This document shows positions 1 through 55,028 of a DNA stretch of 64,000 nt, in pieces. The stretch is from a virus. A program made the translations under genes and the position numbers. The stretch spans positions 27,528 to 91,527 of IMG/VR virus record IMGVR_UViG_3300027769_000020, one strand, 5' to 3'. Below the pieces are notes generated by a model. It did no database searches. It was given only the letters and a program-made list of their open reading frames with translations, and had not been told where the DNA came from. Every line of letters starts with the position of its first letter. Within the stretch, counting starts at the first letter, position 1.

Positions 1-29
1 AATGGTCCCCGCAGGGGAAATAGTGTGCA

Positions 30-173
30 TCATTTAACACACACTATTTTAAACAGACCTTGAGTATATCCATTACTCATAAGTTGTTTCTTTTTCCAAA
101 GGGCTAATGCCTTAGAAGGAAACACAAAGCTCTCTATGAGTCTTGTGTTATTATAGTATTCTAATCTATACAT
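30..173 (-). CDS. small hypothetical early protein (47 aa, MYRLEYYNN...)
   Basis: Track ORF 30..212; ATG at 173 lies just downstream of the repeated motif at 189-205, whereas the longer start overlaps that motif. Confidence 0.65.
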   Translation of the reverse strand: MYRLEYYNNTRLIESFVFPSKALALWKKKQLMSNGYTQGLFKIVCVK

Positions 174-188
174 GGTATTATAATTAAT

Positions 189-205
189 AACAGTTATAAA
201 ATGGT
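189..205 (-). promoter_or_regulatory. repeated motif ACCATYTTATAACTGTT (minus strand), putative phage early promoter
   Basis: Near-identical copies at 189-205, 574-590 and 707-723; variants at 357-373 and 950-966; partial copy at 1-6; each lies upstream of a minus-strand unit. Confidence 0.65.
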
Positions 206-210
206 AAGAC

Positions 211-242
211 AAAAAAAGAGAGAGAGTATTAAACTCTCTCTC
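211..242 (-). terminator. intrinsic terminator
   Basis: GAGAGAGAGT/ACTCTCTCTC stem with A7 run at 211-217 (U tail on minus strand). Confidence 0.75.
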
Positions 243-356
243 AATGTTGCTGGCTAAAGCCTGTTCCGGTACTTACATCTCCAAAGCTATAAGGAGAACG
301 CCTCTGACTTGAAACATAATGAGTATTGATAGAGATCATTAGTTCACTCTATCCAT

Positions 357-373
357 AATAGTTAAAAAATGGA
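357..373 (-). promoter_or_regulatory. variant copy of the early motif
   Basis: AATAGTTAAAAAATGGA vs AACAGTTATAAAATGGT. Confidence 0.5.
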
Positions 374-404
374 TTAAGACAAAGAGAGATAACCTCTCCT
401 TTCA

Positions 405-551
405 TCAGAAAGGGAGGTCATCTTCATCAATATCATATGTATAATTCTCAAGGCTATCCATAGCCTCAAGAGTTATACGCATCATATCATTGTAATAGTC
501 TTGCTCCTCTTGGAGCATGATATTAATATCATTGAATTCAGTATCACGCAT
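405..551 (-). CDS. 48-aa acidic peptide with SSB-like C-terminal tail (...DIDEDDLPF)
   Basis: Hand translation MRDTEFNDINIMLQEEQDYYNDMMRITLEAMDSLENYTYDIDEDDLPF*; below the ORF-track cutoff; sits downstream of motif 574-590. Confidence 0.75.
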   Translation of the reverse strand: MRDTEFNDINIMLQEEQDYYNDMMRITLEAMDSLENYTYDIDEDDLPF

Positions 552-573
552 AATATATAATTTTAAAGTTAAT

Positions 574-590
574 AACAGTTATAAGATGGT
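574..590 (-). promoter_or_regulatory. copy of the early motif
   Basis: AACAGTTATAAGATGGT. Confidence 0.65.
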
Positions 591-595
591 TAAAT

Positions 596-626
596 AAAAA
601 AGAGAAACACCCGAAGGTATCTCTCT
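596..626 (-). terminator. intrinsic terminator with UUCG loop
   Basis: Minus strand reads AGAGAGATACC-TTCG-GGTGTTTCTCT followed by a T run. Confidence 0.7.
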
Positions 627-706
627 TGCTTTCTCCTGATCTTGCCAAAGCTAAGCTCAAATGATGTGTGTTTACATAACATACACATCATTCATTATAA
701 TTTATA

Positions 707-723
707 AACAGTTATAAGATGGT
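707..723 (-). promoter_or_regulatory. copy of the early motif
   Basis: AACAGTTATAAGATGGT, identical to 574-590. Confidence 0.65.
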
Positions 724-727
724 AAAG

Positions 728-760
728 AAAAAAACATAAGAGCCTAAGCTCTTATTTTTT
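728..760. terminator. intrinsic terminator (possibly bidirectional)
   Basis: ATAAGAGC-CTAA-GCTCTTAT with an A run before and a T run after. Confidence 0.7.
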
Positions 761-928
761 GTACTTTTCTGAATCAGGTGCGGCTAATACACCCATTAAT
801 AAGAAGAATGTTAAACCTATGAACACAGCAGCCAGTGTTGTCATGTGTTCAAGTATGCTCTCTGTAGCTGCATAGCCAAGCATGATTGTACATGCAATCA
901 TAATCTTGTAGTGTAAAGAATATTTCAT
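752..928 (-). CDS. 58-aa small membrane protein (two hydrophobic segments)
   Basis: Hand translation MKYSLHYKIMIACTIMLGYAATESILEHMTTLAAVFIGLTFFLLMGVLAAPDSEKYKK*; downstream of motif 950-966. Confidence 0.7.
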   Translation of the reverse strand: MKYSLHYKIMIACTIMLGYAATESILEHMTTLAAVFIGLTFFLLMGVLAAPDSEKYKK

Positions 929-949
929 AGTGTGTAATTTTTAATTAAA

Positions 950-966
950 TTAAGTTAGAAAATGGT
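950..966 (-). promoter_or_regulatory. variant copy of the early motif
   Basis: TTAAGTTAGAAAATGGT. Confidence 0.55.
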
Positions 967-1136
967 TGCCTTGCGCAGCAAGCATGGGGGGTACCACCTC
1001 TGGCTTCAGGGGGTGGGGGTGTTGTAGTAGGGGTCCATCACAAAGCCCTACATATATAAATTCCCCTAGCCGTAAGTTCATCACACCTGGGGTGAAAATA
1101 ACCCGCAAAAGTTATTGTGTATTGTACCAATGTTAT

Positions 1137-1144
1137 TATATTTG
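1137..1144 (+). promoter_or_regulatory. Bacteroidota-type -7 promoter box TATATTTG
   Basis: Matches TAnnTTTG; the same 8-mer is intergenic at 2057, 3971, 7082, 15218 and 39793. Confidence 0.6.
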
Positions 1145-1178
1145 TACTAATTAGTTTTTAAATTTTATTGTTATCATT

Positions 1179-1208
1179 AATCCTCAGATGTATGTCTGGG
1201 GATTTTTG
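1179..1208 (+). terminator. intrinsic terminator
   Basis: AATCCTCAGA/TCTGGGGATT stem followed by Ts. Confidence 0.6.
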
Positions 1209-1214
1209 TTTAAG

Positions 1215-1408
1215 ATATTACTCCTGTGTTCAAGTAGCACAGGTCCAGTACCAGTTAAGCATCCCATAAGATCTGCTTGTTGGTCTTCTCTGCTCAGGAA
1301 AGTGGAATTGATTTATAGGTGTAAACGCGTTACCTCTATAAGCAACCATATAACTGCAGCAACCCCAAGTAAGTTTCTCTGATCAGGAAATACTGCTTGG
1401 GTTTTTTT
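1215..1408 (+). ncRNA. putative structured non-coding RNA
   Basis: Several stems (CCTGTG/CACAGG; ACCAG..AAGCA/TGCTT..TTGGT; CCCAAG/CTTGGG plus T7); 16-nt repeat TTCTCTGMTCAGGAAA at 1286 and 1375; no credible ORF. Confidence 0.45.
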
Positions 1409-1437
1409 ATTTATATTTACAAGATAAAATTAATATT

Positions 1438-1776
1438 ATGAGACACGTAGAAAAAGCATTATTAAAATACAATGAAGAGAATAATGAGAAATGGACACAG
1501 TTCATTCAAATTGAAAATGCAGAGGATGTAAAAGATGTAGCACCTGTAGTAAAATTTACAATACAATCTGATCCAATTAGTGAAGTAGGGGTTAATGGAG
1601 TACAAGCATTAGATATGTTAAAGTATGTTAAGTGTTTATTTGAAAGTTTAAATGATGCATTTCCATGTAAAGAAAATGTTTTGAGTATTACAAAAATTGA
1701 AGAAGCTATTCACTGGCAAGATGCTAGAACTAAAGATAGACAACGTAGACAAGTAGAAGGTCATAATAAAAAGTAA
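1438..1776 (+). CDS. tad1: Tad1-like anti-defence nucleotide-signal sponge (Thoeris/CBASS)
   Basis: C-terminal pattern Q..P..E.GVNG...D.L......L..FPC.EN...ITK.EEA..W...RT.DR..R.VEG recognised from the Tad1 family. Confidence 0.7.
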   Translation: MRHVEKALLKYNEENNEKWTQFIQIENAEDVKDVAPVVKFTIQSDPISEVGVNGVQALDMLKYVKCLFESLNDAFPCKENVLSITKIEEAIHWQDARTKDRQRRQVEGHNKK

Positions 1777-1785
1777 ATAGTTACT

Positions 1786-2052
1786 ATGAAGTTATATATT
1801 GAGAAACCTAAAACTGTTGCTGCTATGCAATGGGATGGTACAGAGAAGATGGCTATTGAGATTTCTAGTGATGAGAAATTTGAAGGTATGTTGGATTACA
1901 GGCAGAGAAAATTTTTTGCATTCTGGATGTATGACGGGGATAGAGAATATAGAGTGCATGAGGGGGACTATATATTAAAGGATTGGAATGGGACTTATTC
2001 TATGGTACCAAAAAAATTATTTGAAAAATCTTTTGAAGAAGTCAAAGAATAA
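1786..2052 (+). CDS. small phage protein of the Y.KKP..V.A.QW / GDYI...G.....K..FE..Y type (PGDYG-like)
   Basis: Motifs LYIEKPKTVAAMQWDG and EGDYILKDWNG..PKKLFEKSF. Confidence 0.6.
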   Translation: MKLYIEKPKTVAAMQWDGTEKMAIEISSDEKFEGMLDYRQRKFFAFWMYDGDREYRVHEGDYILKDWNGTYSMVPKKLFEKSFEEVKE

Positions 2053-2064
2053 TTATTATATTTG
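2032..2064 (+). promoter_or_regulatory. Bacteroidota sigma70-type promoter TTTG-N21-TATATTTG
   Basis: TTTG at 2032-2035 and TATATTTG at 2057-2064. Confidence 0.65.
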
Positions 2065-2123
2065 TTGAGCTGATAAGTGTTTACGGTTCATTTATTTTGT
2101 GATTAAAAGTTATATCTAAAAAG

Positions 2124-2158
2124 TAAGCTCTAGTTAATTCTTAGGGCTTATTTTTTTT
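2124..2158 (+). terminator. intrinsic terminator
   Basis: TAAGCTCTAG/TTAGGGCTTA stem plus T8. Confidence 0.7.
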
Positions 2159-2171
2159 AAAAAGGAAAAGC

Positions 2172-3128
2172 ATGGCAATTTTTGATTATCATTACAGACA
2201 GGTATTGAAAGATATCTACTGGAAAGGGTTTGTATATGAAGACCCTAACAGAAAAGGAGTAGAAAGAAAGCAGATAGCAAAAGCTACTCTAAGTTGTAAC
2301 CCACATGAAGGCTTCCCTGCCTTGACTACAAAGCAAGTTTATTTTAAAGGTGCAGTAGCAGAGTTATTATTTTTTATGTCAGGTTCTACTGATATAAGAA
2401 ACTTGTGGAAAATGGATGTAAGATTCTGGGATAAGGATTGGGCACGTTATCATAAGTTTACTGATGAAACTATTAAGTACTTATATAATGCATGGGAGTA
2501 TTCTGAAATAGATGATAGAATGAATAGGTTACCAGATTCATTATATGATATGGGTAAGGTATATCCTTATCAATGGAGAAAGGCTAATGGTGTAGATCAG
2601 TTATATAATCTTGCATTTAATATGGTCACTAATCCTATGTCAACATCATTGATTGTTAACTCATGGAATGCTGGTGATTTAGTTGATATGTGTTTGCCTC
2701 CGTGTCATTATTCATTTCAAGTAATGTGCCAACCAGTAGGTAAAACATATGTGTTTAGAATTATATGGGACCAAAGGTCTACAGATTTTTTCTTAGGTAC
2801 TCCGGTGAACATGATGTTCTATACCTTACTAGGTCATGTACTAGAAGCATTGACAGGATATAAATGTATAGAGGTATCAGGTGAATTAAAGAATGTACAC
2901 ATATATGATAACCAAATGGATGTAGTAAAGGAACAGTTAGACCGTCCAGTTGATACATATGGTGAGAGTAAACTTGTATTAGATAAATCTAAATTTAAAA
3001 TATTTATTCAAAATCCTACAAGTTTAAACTTTGATTATGTAATAAAATCATTATCTTTATCAGACTTTAAGTTGGAGGGATATGCAAGTTATCCAAAACT
3101 TAAAGTAGAAATGTTAAGTTATAATTAA
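2172..3128 (+). CDS. thyA: thymidylate synthase
   Basis: GFPALTTK, ELLFF, catalytic LPPCH, QRSTDFFLG.PVN and HIYDNQ motifs. Confidence 0.92.
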   Translation: MAIFDYHYRQVLKDIYWKGFVYEDPNRKGVERKQIAKATLSCNPHEGFPALTTKQVYFKGAVAELLFFMSGSTDIRNLWKMDVRFWDKDWARYHKFTDETIKYLYNAWEYSEIDDRMNRLPDSLYDMGKVYPYQWRKANGVDQLYNLAFNMVTNPMSTSLIVNSWNAGDLVDMCLPPCHYSFQVMCQPVGKTYVFRIIWDQRSTDFFLGTPVNMMFYTLLGHVLEALTGYKCIEVSGELKNVHIYDNQMDVVKEQLDRPVDTYGESKLVLDKSKFKIFIQNPTSLNFDYVIKSLSLSDFKLEGYASYPKLKVEMLSYN

Positions 3129-25126: not shown

Positions 25127-26743
25127 ATGGCAACTCCAGTATTAAATAATGGTATATTCCTGCGTGATACGGCATACAATGCTAGTTCACATGTGGATTC
25201 ATACCATTTACAAAACATGCTAAAAGATGCAGAACCAATGGATTTAGGTCCAGTAGACTTATGGGCTATGGCTCAAAAAGTTGAAATGCCTTTATACCAG
25301 TTGTCTTCTTTTGGTGGAAAAAATGTTATCAATGTGGATAACGCAAGAGGTGAGTACAAATGGCAAACTCCAGTATCTATTGATCTACCTTACATTGTAG
25401 AAGATATTGAACCAGGTAATACTGCTAAAGGTATTGAAGGAACTACTTTCAAAATCAAGTTGAATAAACGTGAGTTTGGACATGGTGATATCATTACTTA
25501 TGACAAGTATAATGGTGTTGAGATGTACATTACTGCTGATGATATCTTACCTATTGGTGATGGTTTCATCTATACAGTACAGTTAGTTAACAATGATAAC
25601 TATAAGTACATTGATAATGCTTACTTGGCTAATGGTACTAAAGTATTCCGTAAAGGTTCTGCTAGAGGTGAGTATGGTGAGAGATTCTCTGACATCCAAA
25701 CTAACACAGGATTCCGTGAGTACTACAACTACGTTGGTGGTGCTGAAGCACACGTTCATTACTCTATCTCTTCTAGAGCAGATTTAATGATTAAAGGTGG
25801 TATGAATGCAGATGGTACAGTTCCTGTAACTGAAATCTGGAGATCACACTTAAAAGGATTAGATCCATCTATTTCATCTTTAGATGATATGGTTAAAGTA
25901 ATGGGTAAAGACTCAGTTAAAAAAGCATTTGATAATGGTGATTTATCAAGAACTTTCTTAACTAATATGGAGGCTGCACACTTAACTAAGATTGCATCTG
26001 ATATTGAGACTTACTTAATGTGGGGTCATGGTGGTAGAGTACGTCAAGACGGACCAGATGATGTAAGATTATCTGTAGGTTTATGGAAACAGTTAGATAA
26101 CTCTTTCAAACGTATCTATAACAAAAACAACTTTAACTTAGACTTATTCAGAGGAGAGTTATACAACTTCTTCAATGGTAAGGTTGAGTTCCAAGGACCA
26201 GATCCTAAACGTCAACTTGTTGTACAAACAGGTATGGGTGGTATGAGAATGGTTAATGAAGCTATTAAACAAGAAGCTATTTCTTCAGGTTTATTAATTC
26301 AAGCTGCTGATATCGGTGCTATCACTGGTAAAGGTATGGACTTAAACTTTGGATTTGCTTATACATCTTACGTTATTCCATTCTTGGCTAATGTTAAGTT
26401 TGTATTGAACCCAGCATTTGACAATGTTCATACTAATGATATTGAGAACCCAATCATTGATGGTTTCCCATTATCTTCTTACTCATTCATTATTTTTGAT
26501 ATCACAGATAATACTAATGACAACATTTACATGTTGAAATTATCTTGGGATAATCAATTGAAATGGTGGTACCAAAATGGAACAATGGACTACATGGGTA
26601 GATCTCAAGGATTCCAGTCTTCAGGACAATTCAACGGTTACCGTGTAATGATGTCTCAAACAATGCCTGCTATTTGGGTTAAAGATCCAACTAAAGTATT
26701 GAAAATTGTTATGAGAAACCCAATTACAGGTGGATCATTCTAA
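25127..26743 (+). CDS. major capsid protein
   Basis: 538 aa, strong codon bias, position after scaffold, followed by a terminator. Confidence 0.85.
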   Translation: MATPVLNNGIFLRDTAYNASSHVDSYHLQNMLKDAEPMDLGPVDLWAMAQKVEMPLYQLSSFGGKNVINVDNARGEYKWQTPVSIDLPYIVEDIEPGNTAKGIEGTTFKIKLNKREFGHGDIITYDKYNGVEMYITADDILPIGDGFIYTVQLVNNDNYKYIDNAYLANGTKVFRKGSARGEYGERFSDIQTNTGFREYYNYVGGAEAHVHYSISSRADLMIKGGMNADGTVPVTEIWRSHLKGLDPSISSLDDMVKVMGKDSVKKAFDNGDLSRTFLTNMEAAHLTKIASDIETYLMWGHGGRVRQDGPDDVRLSVGLWKQLDNSFKRIYNKNNFNLDLFRGELYNFFNGKVEFQGPDPKRQLVVQTGMGGMRMVNEAIKQEAISSGLLIQAADIGAITGKGMDLNFGFAYTSYVIPFLANVKFVLNPAFDNVHTNDIENPIIDGFPLSSYSFIIFDITDNTNDNIYMLKLSWDNQLKWWYQNGTMDYMGRSQGFQSSGQFNGYRVMMSQTMPAIWVKDPTKVLKIVMRNPITGGSF

Positions 26744-26754
26744 TATGTCAAAGC

Positions 26755-26786
26755 AAAAAAAGGAGGGGCCAGTCTCCTCCTTTTTT
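26755..26786 (+). terminator. intrinsic (bidirectional) terminator after MCP
   Basis: A7-GGAGG...CCTCC-T6. Confidence 0.75.
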
Positions 26787-26826
26787 ATTATATTTACAAT
26801 TATAAACATTTTAAAACCAACATAAA

Positions 26827-27837
26827 ATGGAATTTACACACGTAGAAGTATTTAATACTAACAAGAGCAACAAGATCTCTATCAAGCCTTACTTTGACAA
26901 CTCAATGTCAAATATGGGATTAGAAAATTATGGTCAATCATTATTTGATGGAGTTAAACATTTTGAACAACTAGCATGTCTAGAGCAAAATGGAGTAATA
27001 AGATATGTAACAGGGTTAAATGAATTTGCACCTGAGATTAAATTATTACCAACAGAACAAAGAGAAGCAAAAGTAAAACAGATTAGAATTGCTGTTGCTG
27101 AATTAGAAAGAGAGTTAGCAGCTAACATATTAGATGTTGAGAGCCCAACTTTCTGGAATGATGTTAAACTATTAAGACCAGACAATAAAGAATTCTGGAA
27201 TAAGATTAACATGTCATGTGGTAATGAACCAGTGTATTTAGACCCTACTAATCCATATGATAGAATTAAATTATATGCTGTTGAAGCAGGTGGATTTTCA
27301 CTTGTATCAAGAAGCTATGATGATGCTAGATCAAAAGCAGTACCACCAAAATTTTACTTAGATAAAGTAACTGAAACAAGTGGTATCAAAACTGAATACA
27401 AAAAACTTAAAAATAAAGCTCTTGCTGAGTTACAAAAATTGTTTGATAAAAACAGTACTAAATTATTTTACATTGCTAAGTCAGTAGATACAGCAAGTGT
27501 ACAGTATAAAAAACATACACCAAATGATGTTATTTATGATAACATGGATAGACATATCAATGGTGAAGGTACAGAAGGTAATAAAGAAAGAGCAGCAAAA
27601 GGATTCTTAGATGCAGCAGCTTTAGATATGGAAACATTAAAAATTAAAGCAATTGTAAAAGATTCCATATTTTTTAAGTATATTATTAATAAGTCAGATG
27701 GTTATATCTATCATGCTAAATCAAATAGCTTGTTAGGTAGAAATGTTTCTGATGTAATTGAGTTCTTGAAAAACCCTTTAAATGAGGATATTTTAAAAGA
27801 CTTAAACACACAAGTTGAAAAAGTGTGGAATATGTAA
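26827..27837 (+). CDS. conserved virion-module protein following MCP
   Basis: 336-aa ORF; synteny with the crAss-like capsid module. Confidence 0.65.
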   Translation: MEFTHVEVFNTNKSNKISIKPYFDNSMSNMGLENYGQSLFDGVKHFEQLACLEQNGVIRYVTGLNEFAPEIKLLPTEQREAKVKQIRIAVAELERELAANILDVESPTFWNDVKLLRPDNKEFWNKINMSCGNEPVYLDPTNPYDRIKLYAVEAGGFSLVSRSYDDARSKAVPPKFYLDKVTETSGIKTEYKKLKNKALAELQKLFDKNSTKLFYIAKSVDTASVQYKKHTPNDVIYDNMDRHINGEGTEGNKERAAKGFLDAAALDMETLKIKAIVKDSIFFKYIINKSDGYIYHAKSNSLLGRNVSDVIEFLKNPLNEDILKDLNTQVEKVWNM

Positions 27838-27846
27838 ACAACTTCA

Positions 27847-27880
27847 GGGTATACTAGTAACCGCTAGTATACTCTTTTTT
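27847..27880 (+). terminator. intrinsic terminator
   Basis: GGGTATACTAG/CTAGTATACTC stem plus T6. Confidence 0.75.
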
Positions 27881-27892
27881 AAATTATAAGTT

Positions 27893-28063
27893 ATGGCAAA
27901 TGCAAAAGTAAATGTTCAAAAAAATGCAACAGGTAGAGTAGGTGGTACTAATGCTCCTGTATATGCATTAAAATCTGCATCAGGTAAATCATGCGGTAAA
28001 GTTAATAAACCTCAAGCTGCACCTAAAATGAAAATGGGTGGAAGCAAAGGTAAGAAATGTTAA
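27893..28063 (+). CDS. small basic protein (56 aa) with MKMGG motif
   Basis: Hand translation MANAKVNVQKNATGRVGG...KMKMGGSKGKKC*. Confidence 0.7.
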   Translation: MANAKVNVQKNATGRVGGTNAPVYALKSASGKSCGKVNKPQAAPKMKMGGSKGKKC

Positions 28064-28089
28064 TTTAATAAACTTTTAAATTAATAATC

Positions 28090-29490
28090 ATGGCAAGTAA
28101 AATAAATCCAAAAGGGATATTCAAGTCTAACTCAAGATCTAAAGGCCCAAATCCAAAAGGTATAAATCCAAAAGGAGTATATAAAGCACCAGCTAAACCT
28201 AGAGTTAATCCAAAAGGAATTAATCCTACAGGTATTGGACCTAATAAAGATGGAATTAATCCTGGAGGAATTAAGAAACCAGTTACTCAATCTAGTACAC
28301 CAAGAACTAGAGCTGGAGTATCTAAAGGAAATACACCAGGTACAGCTGCAAAATATGCTCAAAAAAAACCTATTACACAAACTCAATCTACAAGAACTAG
28401 AGCAGGTGTAACAAAAGGAAATGCTCCTGGTAAAGCTGCAGGTATGAGATCTCAAAAGTTATCTAATCAAAAAATGACTTTATCTCAATTAGAAAATGCT
28501 GCATCTAAAAGATATAAACCATTAGGTGCAGATGAGTTATCTAAAACTAGTAAAACTGTTACTGAAGGTGCTAATAAACTTTTAAAAAAGACAACTGAAA
28601 AAGCTAAAGCTAGCGGTATGGATTTACCTAAAAGTGGAAGAAAAAATGTAACAGCACCTAAAGCTTTTTTTAAAACTGATTTGACAAGATTTAAAAAAGT
28701 AGGTAAAAGAGCAATAATTGGTACTGCTATTGCATTAGCAGGAAAAGCTTTATATGATAAAGTATCAGAAAAAAATAAAGCTACTGCACTTGCTAAAACT
28801 AAAGATGACGCTGCTAAAAAAGCTAAAGATGATGCAGCAAAAAAAGCTAAAGCAGACGCTGCTAAAAATCAAGCTGCTAAAAGTCAGGCTTTAAAAAATG
28901 AACTTGCTAAAAAAGAAGCTGCTAAAAAAGACACAGTTAAAAAATATGCAGGAGTAAAGGACAAATGGGGAAGATCAGCTTCAGATAAATGGTTTGGATT
29001 TGATCCTAAAACTAAAGCGTTTACAACAGTGGATTTACCTAAAAAAACAGAAGTTAAAAAGTCTACTAATACAGTAAAACCAAAACCTGTTACTCCTAAA
29101 CCTGCTCAAGTATCAGAAACTCCTAAAGTTGATAATACAACAGCAAGTACTACAAAAGAAGAAGTAGGAACAATTCCATTAAAAACTGTACCAACAGTTG
29201 AAGCACCAAAAGCTATTTTGTCTCCGGCACCTTCAAAAACTACATCAACTTCTCCAGCTTCCTCAACGCCAAGTTCTAGTACTATTAAAAAACCAGAACC
29301 TAAAGGTGGTTTAATTAATAAGATTAGAGGTGCTGTTAATGAAAGTAGAGAAAGAAGAGTTGGTAGAGCTTTTGGTAGAGGTGATACTGAAAGAGCTGCT
29401 GAACTTGAAGCAAAAATAAAAAGAACAGAAAGTAAAATGTATATGAAAAAAGGTGGTGTTGTTAAAAAGACAAAACCTAAAAAGAAATAG
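28090..29490 (+). CDS. large Lys-rich low-complexity protein
   Basis: INPKGI repeats, KDDAAKKA repeats, one hydrophobic segment, C-terminal MKKGG..KPKKK. Confidence 0.75.
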   Translation: MASKINPKGIFKSNSRSKGPNPKGINPKGVYKAPAKPRVNPKGINPTGIGPNKDGINPGGIKKPVTQSSTPRTRAGVSKGNTPGTAAKYAQKKPITQTQSTRTRAGVTKGNAPGKAAGMRSQKLSNQKMTLSQLENAASKRYKPLGADELSKTSKTVTEGANKLLKKTTEKAKASGMDLPKSGRKNVTAPKAFFKTDLTRFKKVGKRAIIGTAIALAGKALYDKVSEKNKATALAKTKDDAAKKAKDDAAKKAKADAAKNQAAKSQALKNELAKKEAAKKDTVKKYAGVKDKWGRSASDKWFGFDPKTKAFTTVDLPKKTEVKKSTNTVKPKPVTPKPAQVSETPKVDNTTASTTKEEVGTIPLKTVPTVEAPKAILSPAPSKTTSTSPASSTPSSSTIKKPEPKGGLINKIRGAVNESRERRVGRAFGRGDTERAAELEAKIKRTESKMYMKKGGVVKKTKPKKK

Positions 29491-52754: not shown

Positions 52755-55028
52755 ATGAAAAAGAAAGTAAGAGTATATAAACCAGGTGGTGAAGCTGCTC
52801 AACCTACTCAAGAAGAAATAGTTAATTATATTGCTCAAAGAATGTCATCTGATGACTTTGATGGTGATACTGATACATTAAAAGAAGAGTTAGCTCAAGC
52901 TGGTATTGATGAAGTTACAGCTGAACAATATATTGAATATGTTAATGAGAACTTAGGTTTATCAGACCAATCACAAACTGTTAATCCTGAAGATGCTGCT
53001 GCAATAGCTGCTGAAGAAGAACAAGCTGCATCAGATGAAGAACAAGCTTTACTTAATGAGCAAAATGCAGCAGAAGAGCAGGCAAGACAAGAACAGATGG
53101 CTGCAATGTATGATACTGGTATAGATACATCTGCTGATGAAGCTGCTGATGATGAAGCATTATATATGCAGTATGGTGGTTCTAAACCTAGTAAAAGAAG
53201 TTTTATTAACAAGTATACTAAACTTGCTAAAAAACAAATGGGTGGAGATGCAACAAATCATACTCAAGGTCCAGATACAAAACCAGCAACTAACTTTTTA
53301 TCTGCTGTAGCTAATACAGCTAAAGATGCAGTATTAAAACAAGAAGCTGAACAAGCATATAATTCTATCTATGGTGCACCACAAGTAGGAGCATTTCAAG
53401 ATGGTGGTATAAATCCAGAACAAATTGATACTGAAAGTCCATTAGATCATTGGACTAAGCAAAGTCAAGCTATGGGAGATATTTTTAAGAATAATCAGAA
53501 TATTCAAAATGATATGCCTCATGGACAATTTGGTGGTTTTACAGATACTAATTCTGGTTTATATAGATTTATTGGTGGTGGAGATAATGAGTATATTGAT
53601 GAACAATATCAAGATGCTGATTTAGATTACCCACAGTATGCAAAACATGGTGGTGCTTTACATAAATATCAAGAGGATGGTGAAACTACTGAAGACTGGA
53701 AAGCTAAGTATGATGAACTTGTAAAACAAAATGCAGCAGGAGAAGCACTAATTAATAGAAGTAGACCTTATGGTAGAAGTAATATTATAGGTGGTAATTT
53801 TGGAGGTGGTAATTTTCCTATAACTAGAAATAGATATAACCAAGCAATTGGTAATCCGTATTATACAACTACTGGTGAGGAGTTACCTTATGGTACTGAT
53901 ATTAGTAAATTAACACCAACAAGTACTGTAACAAAAAAAGGTTTATTTGGTAGAGATAAAGAAATTACTGTAAACTTTAGAGACCCATCTGAGTATTTAA
54001 ATGCACCTACTAATGTAACAGCTTCTAATTCTACAGCTGCTACACCTACAAATCAAGCAGGTACACCAAGTACACAAGTTACTAATCCAAGTATGTCTTA
54101 TTATCCTGGACCACAAAATGATCAACGCTTTGCAAGACGTATGATGAATTCAGGTATACCTGTTATACAAGGTATTGGTTCTTATTTTGTTGATACAAAA
54201 AGTCCATCTGAGAAAGAATTATTTAATGATAAAGATGAAGTAGCAAGAGTAAAAAAAAGAATGTCAGACTTTATACCTATTGATAAATTATCACAAAAAA
54301 CAGAGGCAACAAAAGCATATGGTGGACCTATTGACTATACTGAGTATGCTTATGGTGGGGATATATCTGTACCAGAATTATATAGAGCACAAGCAGGAGT
54401 AGAACAAAAACTAGATCCTAATGATAATTCAGTTTTTGCTTTTAAACCTTTAAGTGATGCAGAGTTAGAAGAACAATCTCAATATGATCCTGCAGTACCA
54501 GAACAAGAACAACCAGAATTAACTGATGCACAAAACTTTCTAAAATACCAACGTGATTTTAATCAAATGAATACATATGCTCAAAAAGCTAAAACTGCAG
54601 ATGCTCCGGGTGTAGGTACAACTAGTAATCCAATATATCAAAAAGATATTTCACAAAAGTTTAAACCTAAATCTGAATGGAATGTTGATGGTCCAACTTT
54701 AGGAACAGGTATTGATTTAGCTGAAAATGCAATAGCAGGTACATTAGAAAAAGCTGCTGCTAATAAACAACAGAATCAATTAAATGAGTATTACAAGAAT
54801 ACTATTAATACATTTGGTACAAATGACCAATATAATGTAGGTACTTATGGTGCTAATCTTGGTGATCTTAGATCAAATGATACTGGTTTTATGGGTGTTG
54901 TTAAATATGGTGGAGGTATTTATGCTATGGGTGGAAACACTGAAGATGAAGGTGATGATATCCAATATATGACTGAAAAAGAAATTAAAGACTTCCTAGC
55001 TAATGGAGGTGAATTAGAATATTTATAA
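52755..55028 (+). CDS. low-complexity virion cargo protein with many xxxGG motifs
   Basis: YKPGG, MQYGG, KQMGG, FQDGG, AKHGG, KAYGG, YAYGG, VKYGG, YAMGG, LANGG. Confidence 0.7.
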   Translation: MKKKVRVYKPGGEAAQPTQEEIVNYIAQRMSSDDFDGDTDTLKEELAQAGIDEVTAEQYIEYVNENLGLSDQSQTVNPEDAAAIAAEEEQAASDEEQALLNEQNAAEEQARQEQMAAMYDTGIDTSADEAADDEALYMQYGGSKPSKRSFINKYTKLAKKQMGGDATNHTQGPDTKPATNFLSAVANTAKDAVLKQEAEQAYNSIYGAPQVGAFQDGGINPEQIDTESPLDHWTKQSQAMGDIFKNNQNIQNDMPHGQFGGFTDTNSGLYRFIGGGDNEYIDEQYQDADLDYPQYAKHGGALHKYQEDGETTEDWKAKYDELVKQNAAGEALINRSRPYGRSNIIGGNFGGGNFPITRNRYNQAIGNPYYTTTGEELPYGTDISKLTPTSTVTKKGLFGRDKEITVNFRDPSEYLNAPTNVTASNSTAATPTNQAGTPSTQVTNPSMSYYPGPQNDQRFARRMMNSGIPVIQGIGSYFVDTKSPSEKELFNDKDEVARVKKRMSDFIPIDKLSQKTEATKAYGGPIDYTEYAYGGDISVPELYRAQAGVEQKLDPNDNSVFAFKPLSDAELEEQSQYDPAVPEQEQPELTDAQNFLKYQRDFNQMNTYAQKAKTADAPGVGTTSNPIYQKDISQKFKPKSEWNVDGPTLGTGIDLAENAIAGTLEKAAANKQQNQLNEYYKNTINTFGTNDQYNVGTYGANLGDLRSNDTGFMGVVKYGGGIYAMGGNTEDEGDDIQYMTEKEIKDFLANGGELEYL

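Follow-up and report, generated by a model that had tools for sequence, protein, structure and literature searches.

A candidate stand-alone SSB-tip microprotein encoded in its own small cassette by a putative crAss-like phage

Background

The C-terminal tip of SSB brings more than 12 bacterial replication, recombination and repair enzymes to ssDNA and has been proposed as an antibacterial target. In E. coli the tip reads DDDIPF. Its clients in E. coli and Gram-positive bacteria include ExoI, RecJ, RecQ, PriA, RecO, UDG, Pol III chi and RNase HI, and both the motif and its readers are textbook knowledge. The locus considered here is an open reading frame of 48 codons in a phage genome, whose product, P0001, would end in DIDEDDLPF. 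It raises three questions: whether this frame is a gene, whether its end is a genuine SSB tip, and what a phage could gain from a tip on a peptide of this size.

Results

The phage and its presumed host

The analysed stretch of 64,000 nucleotides, called the window below, comprises bases 27528-91527 of a 91.5-kb IMG/VR record (IMGVR_UViG_3300027769_000020; CheckV completeness 76%). The left arm, on the (-) strand, encodes a DnaB-like helicase, a primase, a Sak4-like annealase, a second helicase, a ParB-like protein and several homing endonucleases. The right arm, on the (+) strand, encodes thymidylate synthase, fibre-like proteins, a major head protein and giant proteins of 1,000-1,770 aa. Both the two-arm layout and the related contigs are consistent with a crAss-like phage, and it is from the crAss-like layout only that Bacteroidota are presumed to be the host phylum. 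A megablast search with the first 4 kb gave no match among GenBank phages.

Two further features of the record can be mentioned here. A 757-aa protein at 52755-55028 contains a DFDGD motif. Two ORFs match successive parts (16-112 and 115-281) of the profile of the ATPase family phrog_1297 and have a homing-endonuclease gene between them (the two halves and the endonuclease lie at L002:397-1152, 1391-2140 and 2194-2619, (-) strand); the arrangement suggests that a mobile element has split a gene.

The cassette of P0001

According to a preliminary description made from the sequence, the region encodes a 48-aa peptide ending in DIDEDDLPF and forming a cassette of its own. Both points stand: the ORF occupies positions 405-551 of the window on the (-) strand, the TGA codon follows directly after the codon for Phe, and the ORF has its own promoter-like motif at 578-590 and a hairpin with a U-rich tract at 413-375. 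The elements of the cassette, in window coordinates, are as follows.

578..590, (-) strand: promoter-like motif ACCATCTTATAAC, 26 nt upstream of the ATG, one of 11 copies
552..577, (-) strand: A/T-rich leader of 26 nt, from the motif to the ATG
405..551, (-) strand: P0001 ORF, 48 codons and TGA (ATG at 551, stop codon at 405-407), candidate SSB-tip microprotein
447..542, (-) strand: codons 4-35, predicted amphipathic, strongly acidic alpha-helix (from AlphaFold2, conservation and heptad register)
423..446, (-) strand: codons 36-43, variable acidic/aromatic linker with in-frame indels among family members
408..422, (-) strand: codons 44-48, SSB C-terminal tip motif DDLPF, immediately before the stop codon
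375..413, (-) strand: hairpin and U-rich tract resembling an intrinsic terminator; the DLPF codons form the 5' arm of the preferred hairpin
361..373, (-) strand: motif copy of the following cassette, at which the P0001 unit ends

The motif ACCATYTTWTAAC, with at most one mismatch allowed, occurs in 11 copies, all on the (-) strand and all within 2.7 kb (genome positions 25758-28493); no copy was observed on the (+) strand or elsewhere in the record. Every copy sits after a hairpin and a T-run and 4-42 nt upstream of the first ATG. This distance is 14-42 nt in the cassettes with clear ORFs, and the leaders of the neighbouring cassettes with longer ORFs have 24-26 nt. The P0001 cassette is the third unit counting from the point where the two arms diverge. 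A scan of the first 1.5 kb for terminators yielded six sites, compared to 0.6 expected from shuffled sequences. The same motif was found upstream of the homologous genes in contigs L004, L005 and L401. Within the whole 91.5-kb record, P0001 is the only one of 533 ORFs of at least 30 aa that combines an acidic last decapeptide with terminal Pro-Phe.

Judging from the cassette array, P0001 is probably expressed early. In phi14:2, one experimentally studied crAss-like phage, early transcripts have no common promoter motif (bioRxiv 10.1101/2020.03.07.982082).

The array contains several other elements. It is led by a 58-aa hydrophobic peptide (window 752-928, (-) strand), which is conserved in L004, L005 and G086 at a length of 57-68 aa. 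Where the two arms diverge, immediately upstream of the first copy of the motif, there is a G+C-rich stretch (window 950-1110) with conserved counterparts in L004, L005 and L401 and no match in Rfam. Two cassettes of the array, at window 213-372 and 595-722 (-), have the motif and the terminator and contain no credible ORF, and are candidate small RNAs. The unit downstream of P0001 starts with nearly identical sequence in the window and in L005, despite strong divergence of the intervening peptide ORF. In window 1-3000, the Rfam search produced sub-threshold chance matches only, and a search for tRNAs found none.

A family with an invariant tip

Word-indexed and exhaustive HMM searches of public proteins resulted in an alignment, A3, of P0001 and its relatives. 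Copies in IMG/VR were reached via a DNA pattern combining the tail and the terminator, and via relatives of the likely phage SSB, P0017 (see below); the initial protein patterns had given nothing. The family to which P0001 belongs, type A, consists of 12 distinct protein variants of 46-49 aa, forming two subclades at 38-43% identity. M1, L13, E16, Y19, Y20, I26, E29, A30 and the terminal L-P-F are invariant. Position -4 is occupied by D in 11 variants and by E in one, and positions -5 and -6 by D, E or N; one family member, P0006, ends in DELPF. The JGI metagenome contigs L004 and L005 represent the second subclade, and in them the gene has kept its surroundings: its cassette, again with this motif and terminator, comes after one for a membrane peptide and before one that lacks an ORF. 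In L005 an extra ORF-less cassette lies between the membrane peptide and the tip peptide.

A second form, type B, was found by scanning five large related records for any ORF ending in [DE]LPF. It is represented by P0018, a protein of 49 aa that ends in DDDDLPF and has the same motif and a nearly identical terminator. In two further contigs a variant of type B has a 3-nt in-frame insertion in the linker (50 aa) and retains the tip. Profile comparison of A3 with type B gave a probability of 86% over 34 columns, a value partly driven by the tip. PF is directly followed by the stop codon in all 12 type-A and both type-B variants. At the SSB C-terminus, position -3 is Ile or Leu and positions -4 to -6 are acidic; the family follows this pattern, L at -3 being invariant.

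Several observations bear on the coding status. The comparison of type A at the DNA level covers two lineages. Between the window and L005 the ORF is far more diverged than the flanking signals, and it is still open, the difference in length being in frame; different codons are used at 6 of 19 conserved residues. Frame 1 is the sole frame open in all three lineages (two of type A and type B), and after shuffling of bases the ORF stays open in 1.5-4% of trials for each of the three. The two type-B sequences differ at 16 bases, distributed as 6, 2 and 8 over codon positions 1, 2 and 3. Most of these changes alter the protein; the distribution over codon positions fits a coding sequence. From such comparisons, P0001 is most likely a real gene, and type A is very probably translated.

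P0001 has no relatives among known domains. Scans against Pfam and PHROGs yielded no match at E-values up to 10, the search of PDB sequences yielded one chance-level match, and scores in the ESM Atlas search did not exceed 0.78. In particular, there is no match to the profile of the OB-fold domain that defines the SSB family, PF00436. Nor were longer or fused relatives of the peptide found, which argues against P0001 being a fragment of an SSB. The N-terminal part, predicted to be helical, is also unlike the Gly/Pro/Gln-rich linker of SSBs. The family was not found in the 185,579 bacterial and archaeal genomes searched.

The gene is accessory in related phages. Among five large relatives that keep P0017, the tip microprotein was observed only in G086, as type B. 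The other four (G087 to G090) have no match to the type-A profile. There is no LPF-ending ORF at all in G087 and G088, and the sole LPF-ending ORF of G089 and G090 encodes a 285-aa protein ending in TELPF. This latter protein (L399:658-1512 in G089 and L397 in G090) has no assigned family and no Pfam match.

Predicted shape of the microprotein

The AlphaFold2 model computed with the 12-sequence alignment consists of one helix, residues 4-35, with block mean pLDDT 92-93 for residues 11-30. Residues 36-48 have no secondary structure, and the last two 10-residue blocks have mean pLDDT 57-69. The tip is predicted to be placed on a flexible, disordered segment. The conserved residues of the helix, among them L13, E16, Y19, Y20, I26, E29 and A30, fall at heptad positions a, d, e and g and form one hydrophobic face. 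The net charge of family members is from -11 to -15 over 46-49 residues.

The tip of Bacteroidota SSBs

Genomes of Bacteroidota were reached with a 16S probe, and PF00436 was searched in 81 genomes drawn evenly across the phylum. The tails of the best 30 PF00436 genes, from 30 genomes, were then considered, 29 of which were readable. All 29 primary SSBs end in LPF, preceded by DD in 28 cases (DDLPF) and by DE in one (DELPF). The tip of P0001 is identical to the SSB tip of this phylum, the presumed host phylum, in the genomes sampled.

At the DNA level, the pattern [DE]LPF-stop is genome-wide about as frequent as its reversed control, and is informative only after checking for real ORFs. Indeed, a complete Flavobacteriaceae genome (G001) contains nine matches to this pattern, and only two of them end real genes, namely SSB and a 125-aa DUF3127 protein with a predicted OB fold. 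In a second genome (G002) the sole real carrier of [DE]LPF is the DUF3127 protein, the only PF00436 gene there having no tip. These chromosomal DUF3127 proteins, of 125-130 aa and ending in DDLPF or DELPF, are encoded at L313:1504-1878 (G001) and L296:1123-1512 (G002).

Similar ends are known from other bacteria. The tail of S. aureus SsbA is DISDDDLPF (PMC5531588), and it matches P0001 in 7 of the last 10 residues. In D. radiodurans, RecJ was seen with EDDLPF bound, Phe occupying a hydrophobic pocket (PMC4846377). S. mutans has only three LPF-ending proteins, two of which are SSBs (PMC5143411). Published data are thus in line with the tip being specific, and mark it as a functional docking peptide.

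Viral carriers of the tip

Two samples of viral ORFs with this end were taken from IMG/VR: at least 112 ORFs ending in DDDLPF-TAA (L006-L118), and at least 115 ending in [DE]DDLPF-TGA (L407-L522). Among the first-sample matches listed, 108 carriers have 60 aa or more. Their Pfam assignments include SSB (32 carriers), gp32-like (19), SSB_1 (14), DUF3127 (11), another OB fold, tRNA_anti-codon (10), and DUF669 (7), with ones and twos of DUF736, SpoVG, Rad52, DUF968 and Phage_SSB; many of the 108 have no Pfam match. All Pfam families matched by more than two of these listed carriers are ssDNA-binding, OB-fold or DUF families. Since the tip occurs on many unrelated viral families, it behaves as a portable module that phages have grafted onto several unrelated ssDNA-binding folds.

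Among the 227 matches listed from both samples, the shortest genuine carriers have 73-99 aa, many being recognisable as small DUF3127-type proteins, and there is no genuine lone-helix carrier below 60 aa. The lone acidic helix is an unusual carrier of the tip.

Several very short ORFs were rejected as free tips. L056 and L058 proved on inspection to be the ends of frameshifted longer genes. L092, L419 and L446, judged by sequence only, look like fragments of longer proteins or SSB linkers, and the remaining ones are cut off by contig ends. A 99-aa protein (L480) does not look OB-like and has DDDLP twice, once within the chain and once at its end, as DDDLPF; this protein, too, may be a non-SSB carrier.

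The preliminary description had proposed that the peptide, too short for an OB fold, mimics an SSB tail, and that homologs should be searched for a conserved terminal LPF. Such a search returned LPF, with D or E at -4, in every variant found. The remark on size agrees with the single-helix model and with a length of at least 73 aa for genuine carriers among the matches listed. The mimicry itself is well supported by comparison: an invariant LPF, a tip like that of 29 out of 29 Bacteroidota SSBs, and a carrier consisting of a lone helix.

The likely SSB of the phage

No SSB of family PF00436 was found in the record. A candidate for the phage's own SSB is P0017, a 228-aa protein encoded beside the Sak4-like annealase and the primase (L002:7343-8029, (-) strand, genome positions, to the left of the window). 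It has 290 relatives in IMG/VR and no match to Pfam or PHROG families. The model of P0017 has pTM 0.69, and its structural matches are mostly OB-fold nucleic-acid binders, with some toxin B-subunit chains. They include PrgE (Z 6.3), Rim1 (Z 5.7), Cdc13, LEF-3, PriB and SSBs, and all Z scores are below 8. At this level of similarity, P0017 is a likely OB-fold protein and the likely SSB of the phage.

P0017 has its own conserved acidic tail with a DFxLD end, different from the host-type tip. Should P0017 indeed be the SSB of the phage, the replisome of the phage would work with a tail of its own, while a separate microprotein provides the host-type tip. In phage HK620, Sak4 needs the last six residues of its SSB (PMC5928155), and thus a reader of the tip could be encoded by the phage here too.

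Discussion

We suggest that the small transcription unit at the head of the leftward arm produces a stand-alone SSB-tip microprotein. Its acidic amphipathic helix (residues 4-35) and floppy acidic linker would lead to a free C-terminal DDLPF. The terminal Phe with its carboxylate, Pro, Leu and the preceding acidic residues would dock into the SSB-tip pockets of host enzymes, and the free tip would compete with SSB-coated ssDNA, so that the client enzymes are uncoupled from it. Nucleases, restart and repair functions, or immunity dependent on the SSB hub could be blunted as a result. The hydrophobic face of the helix may serve for self-association, displaying several tips, or for contact with a second partner. 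The different tail of P0017 would insulate the phage replisome from the decoy. Such competitive docking, in which the binding, its target and its effect would all be as described, is a plausible account and one that we put forward tentatively; that the microprotein engages tip-reading pockets in one way or another, as a decoy or as an adaptor, is probable. A monomeric SSB tip binds its clients weakly, in the micromolar range in the E. coli system, and thus a simple decoy would need a high copy number or oligomerisation. One observation against a pure tip decoy is that the helix is conserved, which such a decoy does not require.

P0001 can be compared with several known systems. T7 gp4 has an acidic C-terminal tail ending in Phe. 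Such a tail is also present in T7 gp2.5 (PMC10359462). An acidic tail ending in an aromatic residue is what both have in common with P0001; in T7 it serves for docking of proteins within the phage replisome. However, they belong to large DNA-binding or helicase proteins, bind the phage polymerase, and their tip sequence is not DDLPF. Another parallel is the bacterial SSB C-terminus itself. P0001 has its last five to seven residues in common with it, and in both cases these residues end the chain, leaving the carboxylate of Phe free, and come after an acidic run and a linker predicted to be disordered (PMC4846377, PMC5531588). On the other hand, bacterial SSBs have an OB fold, a ssDNA-binding domain, a match to PF00436 and a Gly/Pro/Gln-rich linker, whereas the carrier in P0001 is an acidic helix of 32 residues. 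The viral ssDNA-binding carriers (SSB, gp32-like, SSB_1, DUF669, DUF3127, SpoVG-like and Rad52-like) also come from viral contigs, and theirs is the end DDDLPF. But they have 73 aa or more among the matches listed, and those matched by Pfam are ssDNA-binding, OB-fold or DUF proteins, whereas P0001 is strongly acidic and has no domain. Finally, ORF104 of S. aureus phage 77 binds the helicase loader DnaI (PMC4887207). It is likened to P0001 by concept and not by sequence or fold, as a small protein by which a phage targets a replication protein of its host; unlike what we propose here, it is not known to mimic a host docking peptide.

The main alternative to a decoy is an adaptor. The helix could bind a phage or host protein, for example the phage's own SSB with its divergent tail, its helicase or its annealase, and supply the host-type tip in trans, so that host tip-reading enzymes are drawn to the DNA or to a factor of the phage. 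One face of the helix retains invariant residues across subclades, which is more than a passive spacer needs, and the likely phage SSB, P0017, lacks the host tip. Viral ssDNA-binding proteins of several unrelated Pfam families carry a host-type tip, which suggests that phages benefit from recruiting tip readers. However, the helix diverges rapidly between types A and B while the tip is fixed. Moreover, close relatives whose P0017 is 80-88% identical do not have the gene, and thus the microprotein is not an obligatory subunit of P0017. On balance we consider an adaptor rather unlikely.

It is also possible in principle that the cassette is mainly a structured small RNA, the open frame and the tip being incidental or secondary. 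The transcripts of three lineages fold far better than shuffled sequences (z -8.0, -3.65 and -6.2), and in all three cassettes the codons for DLPF pair with the sequence after the stop codon to form the terminator stem ahead of the U-rich tract. Two neighbouring cassettes have no ORF, and one cluster of the type-B changes lengthens a stem. But just as much structure is seen in clearly coding genes of this arm (z from -3.7 to -5.8), and therefore RNA structure was rejected as decisive evidence against coding. The codons for Leu, Pro and Phe are pyrimidine-rich by the genetic code, and so pair readily with a purine-rich terminator arm. Further, none of the 14 distinct variants has an interrupted frame, their indels are in frame and the heptad pattern is conserved, and the hairpins in the body of the ORF lie at other positions in L005 than in the window. 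Any sequence could serve as a terminator arm, as the non-coding partner can co-vary, yet this arm spells the exact SSB tip of Bacteroidota, in frame, directly before the stop codon and preceded by acidic residues that lie outside the stem. We regard a mainly RNA function as improbable. A dual role of the P0001 transcript, as a structured mRNA, is on the other hand quite possible, and a terminator with the DLPF codons in its arm could couple translation of the last codons to termination. Such a terminator is also present in L005 and L401. An alternative GAGAG/CUCUC hairpin occurs just downstream, sharing its 3' arm with the DLPF hairpin.

Phages are well known to make small acidic proteins that mimic DNA, and the helix of P0001, in a family with net charge as low as this, might be a mimic of nucleic acid, acting in anti-restriction, as an inhibitor of a DNA-binding protein or on the OB fold of SSB, with the tip of minor importance. 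However, no other element is as conserved across types A and B as the tip, whereas the helix drifts in sequence, and no similarity to any Pfam, PHROGs or PDB family was found, which makes this explanation very improbable.

That the C-terminal LPF is a degradation tag, making the peptide short-lived or keeping ClpXP occupied rather than acting as a docking tip, is hardly credible: the same three C-terminal residues form the ClpXP degron of S. mutans SsbA, and LPF alone made GFP a ClpXP substrate in strain UA159, but this recognition, reported for an SSB, is strain-dependent, absent from E. coli and other streptococci and was not reproduced in vitro (PMC5143411), nothing indicates that ClpXP recognises LPF in Bacteroidota, and a degradation tag would not account for the conservation of acidic residues from -4 to -6.

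Returning to SSB-tip microproteins, it is plausible, and suggested here with due reserve, that phages of Bacteroidota carry a whole class of them, with unrelated tiny carriers, in the present case an acidic helix of at least two diverged types, expressed from dedicated early cassettes and displaying the docking peptide of the host SSB, which would take over or disable the SSB hub of the host, possibly including immunity that reads SSB. No description of a phage SSB-tip decoy or mimic was found in the literature searched, which is not proof of absence. Docking-peptide mimicry is well known in viruses of eukaryotes. If our reading is true, phages use it as well, and such a class would be the first case of viral short-linear-motif mimicry of the SSB interaction hub. 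P0001 would represent a natural inhibitor or re-router of the whole hub, and could serve as a compact reagent for probing it in Bacteroidota.
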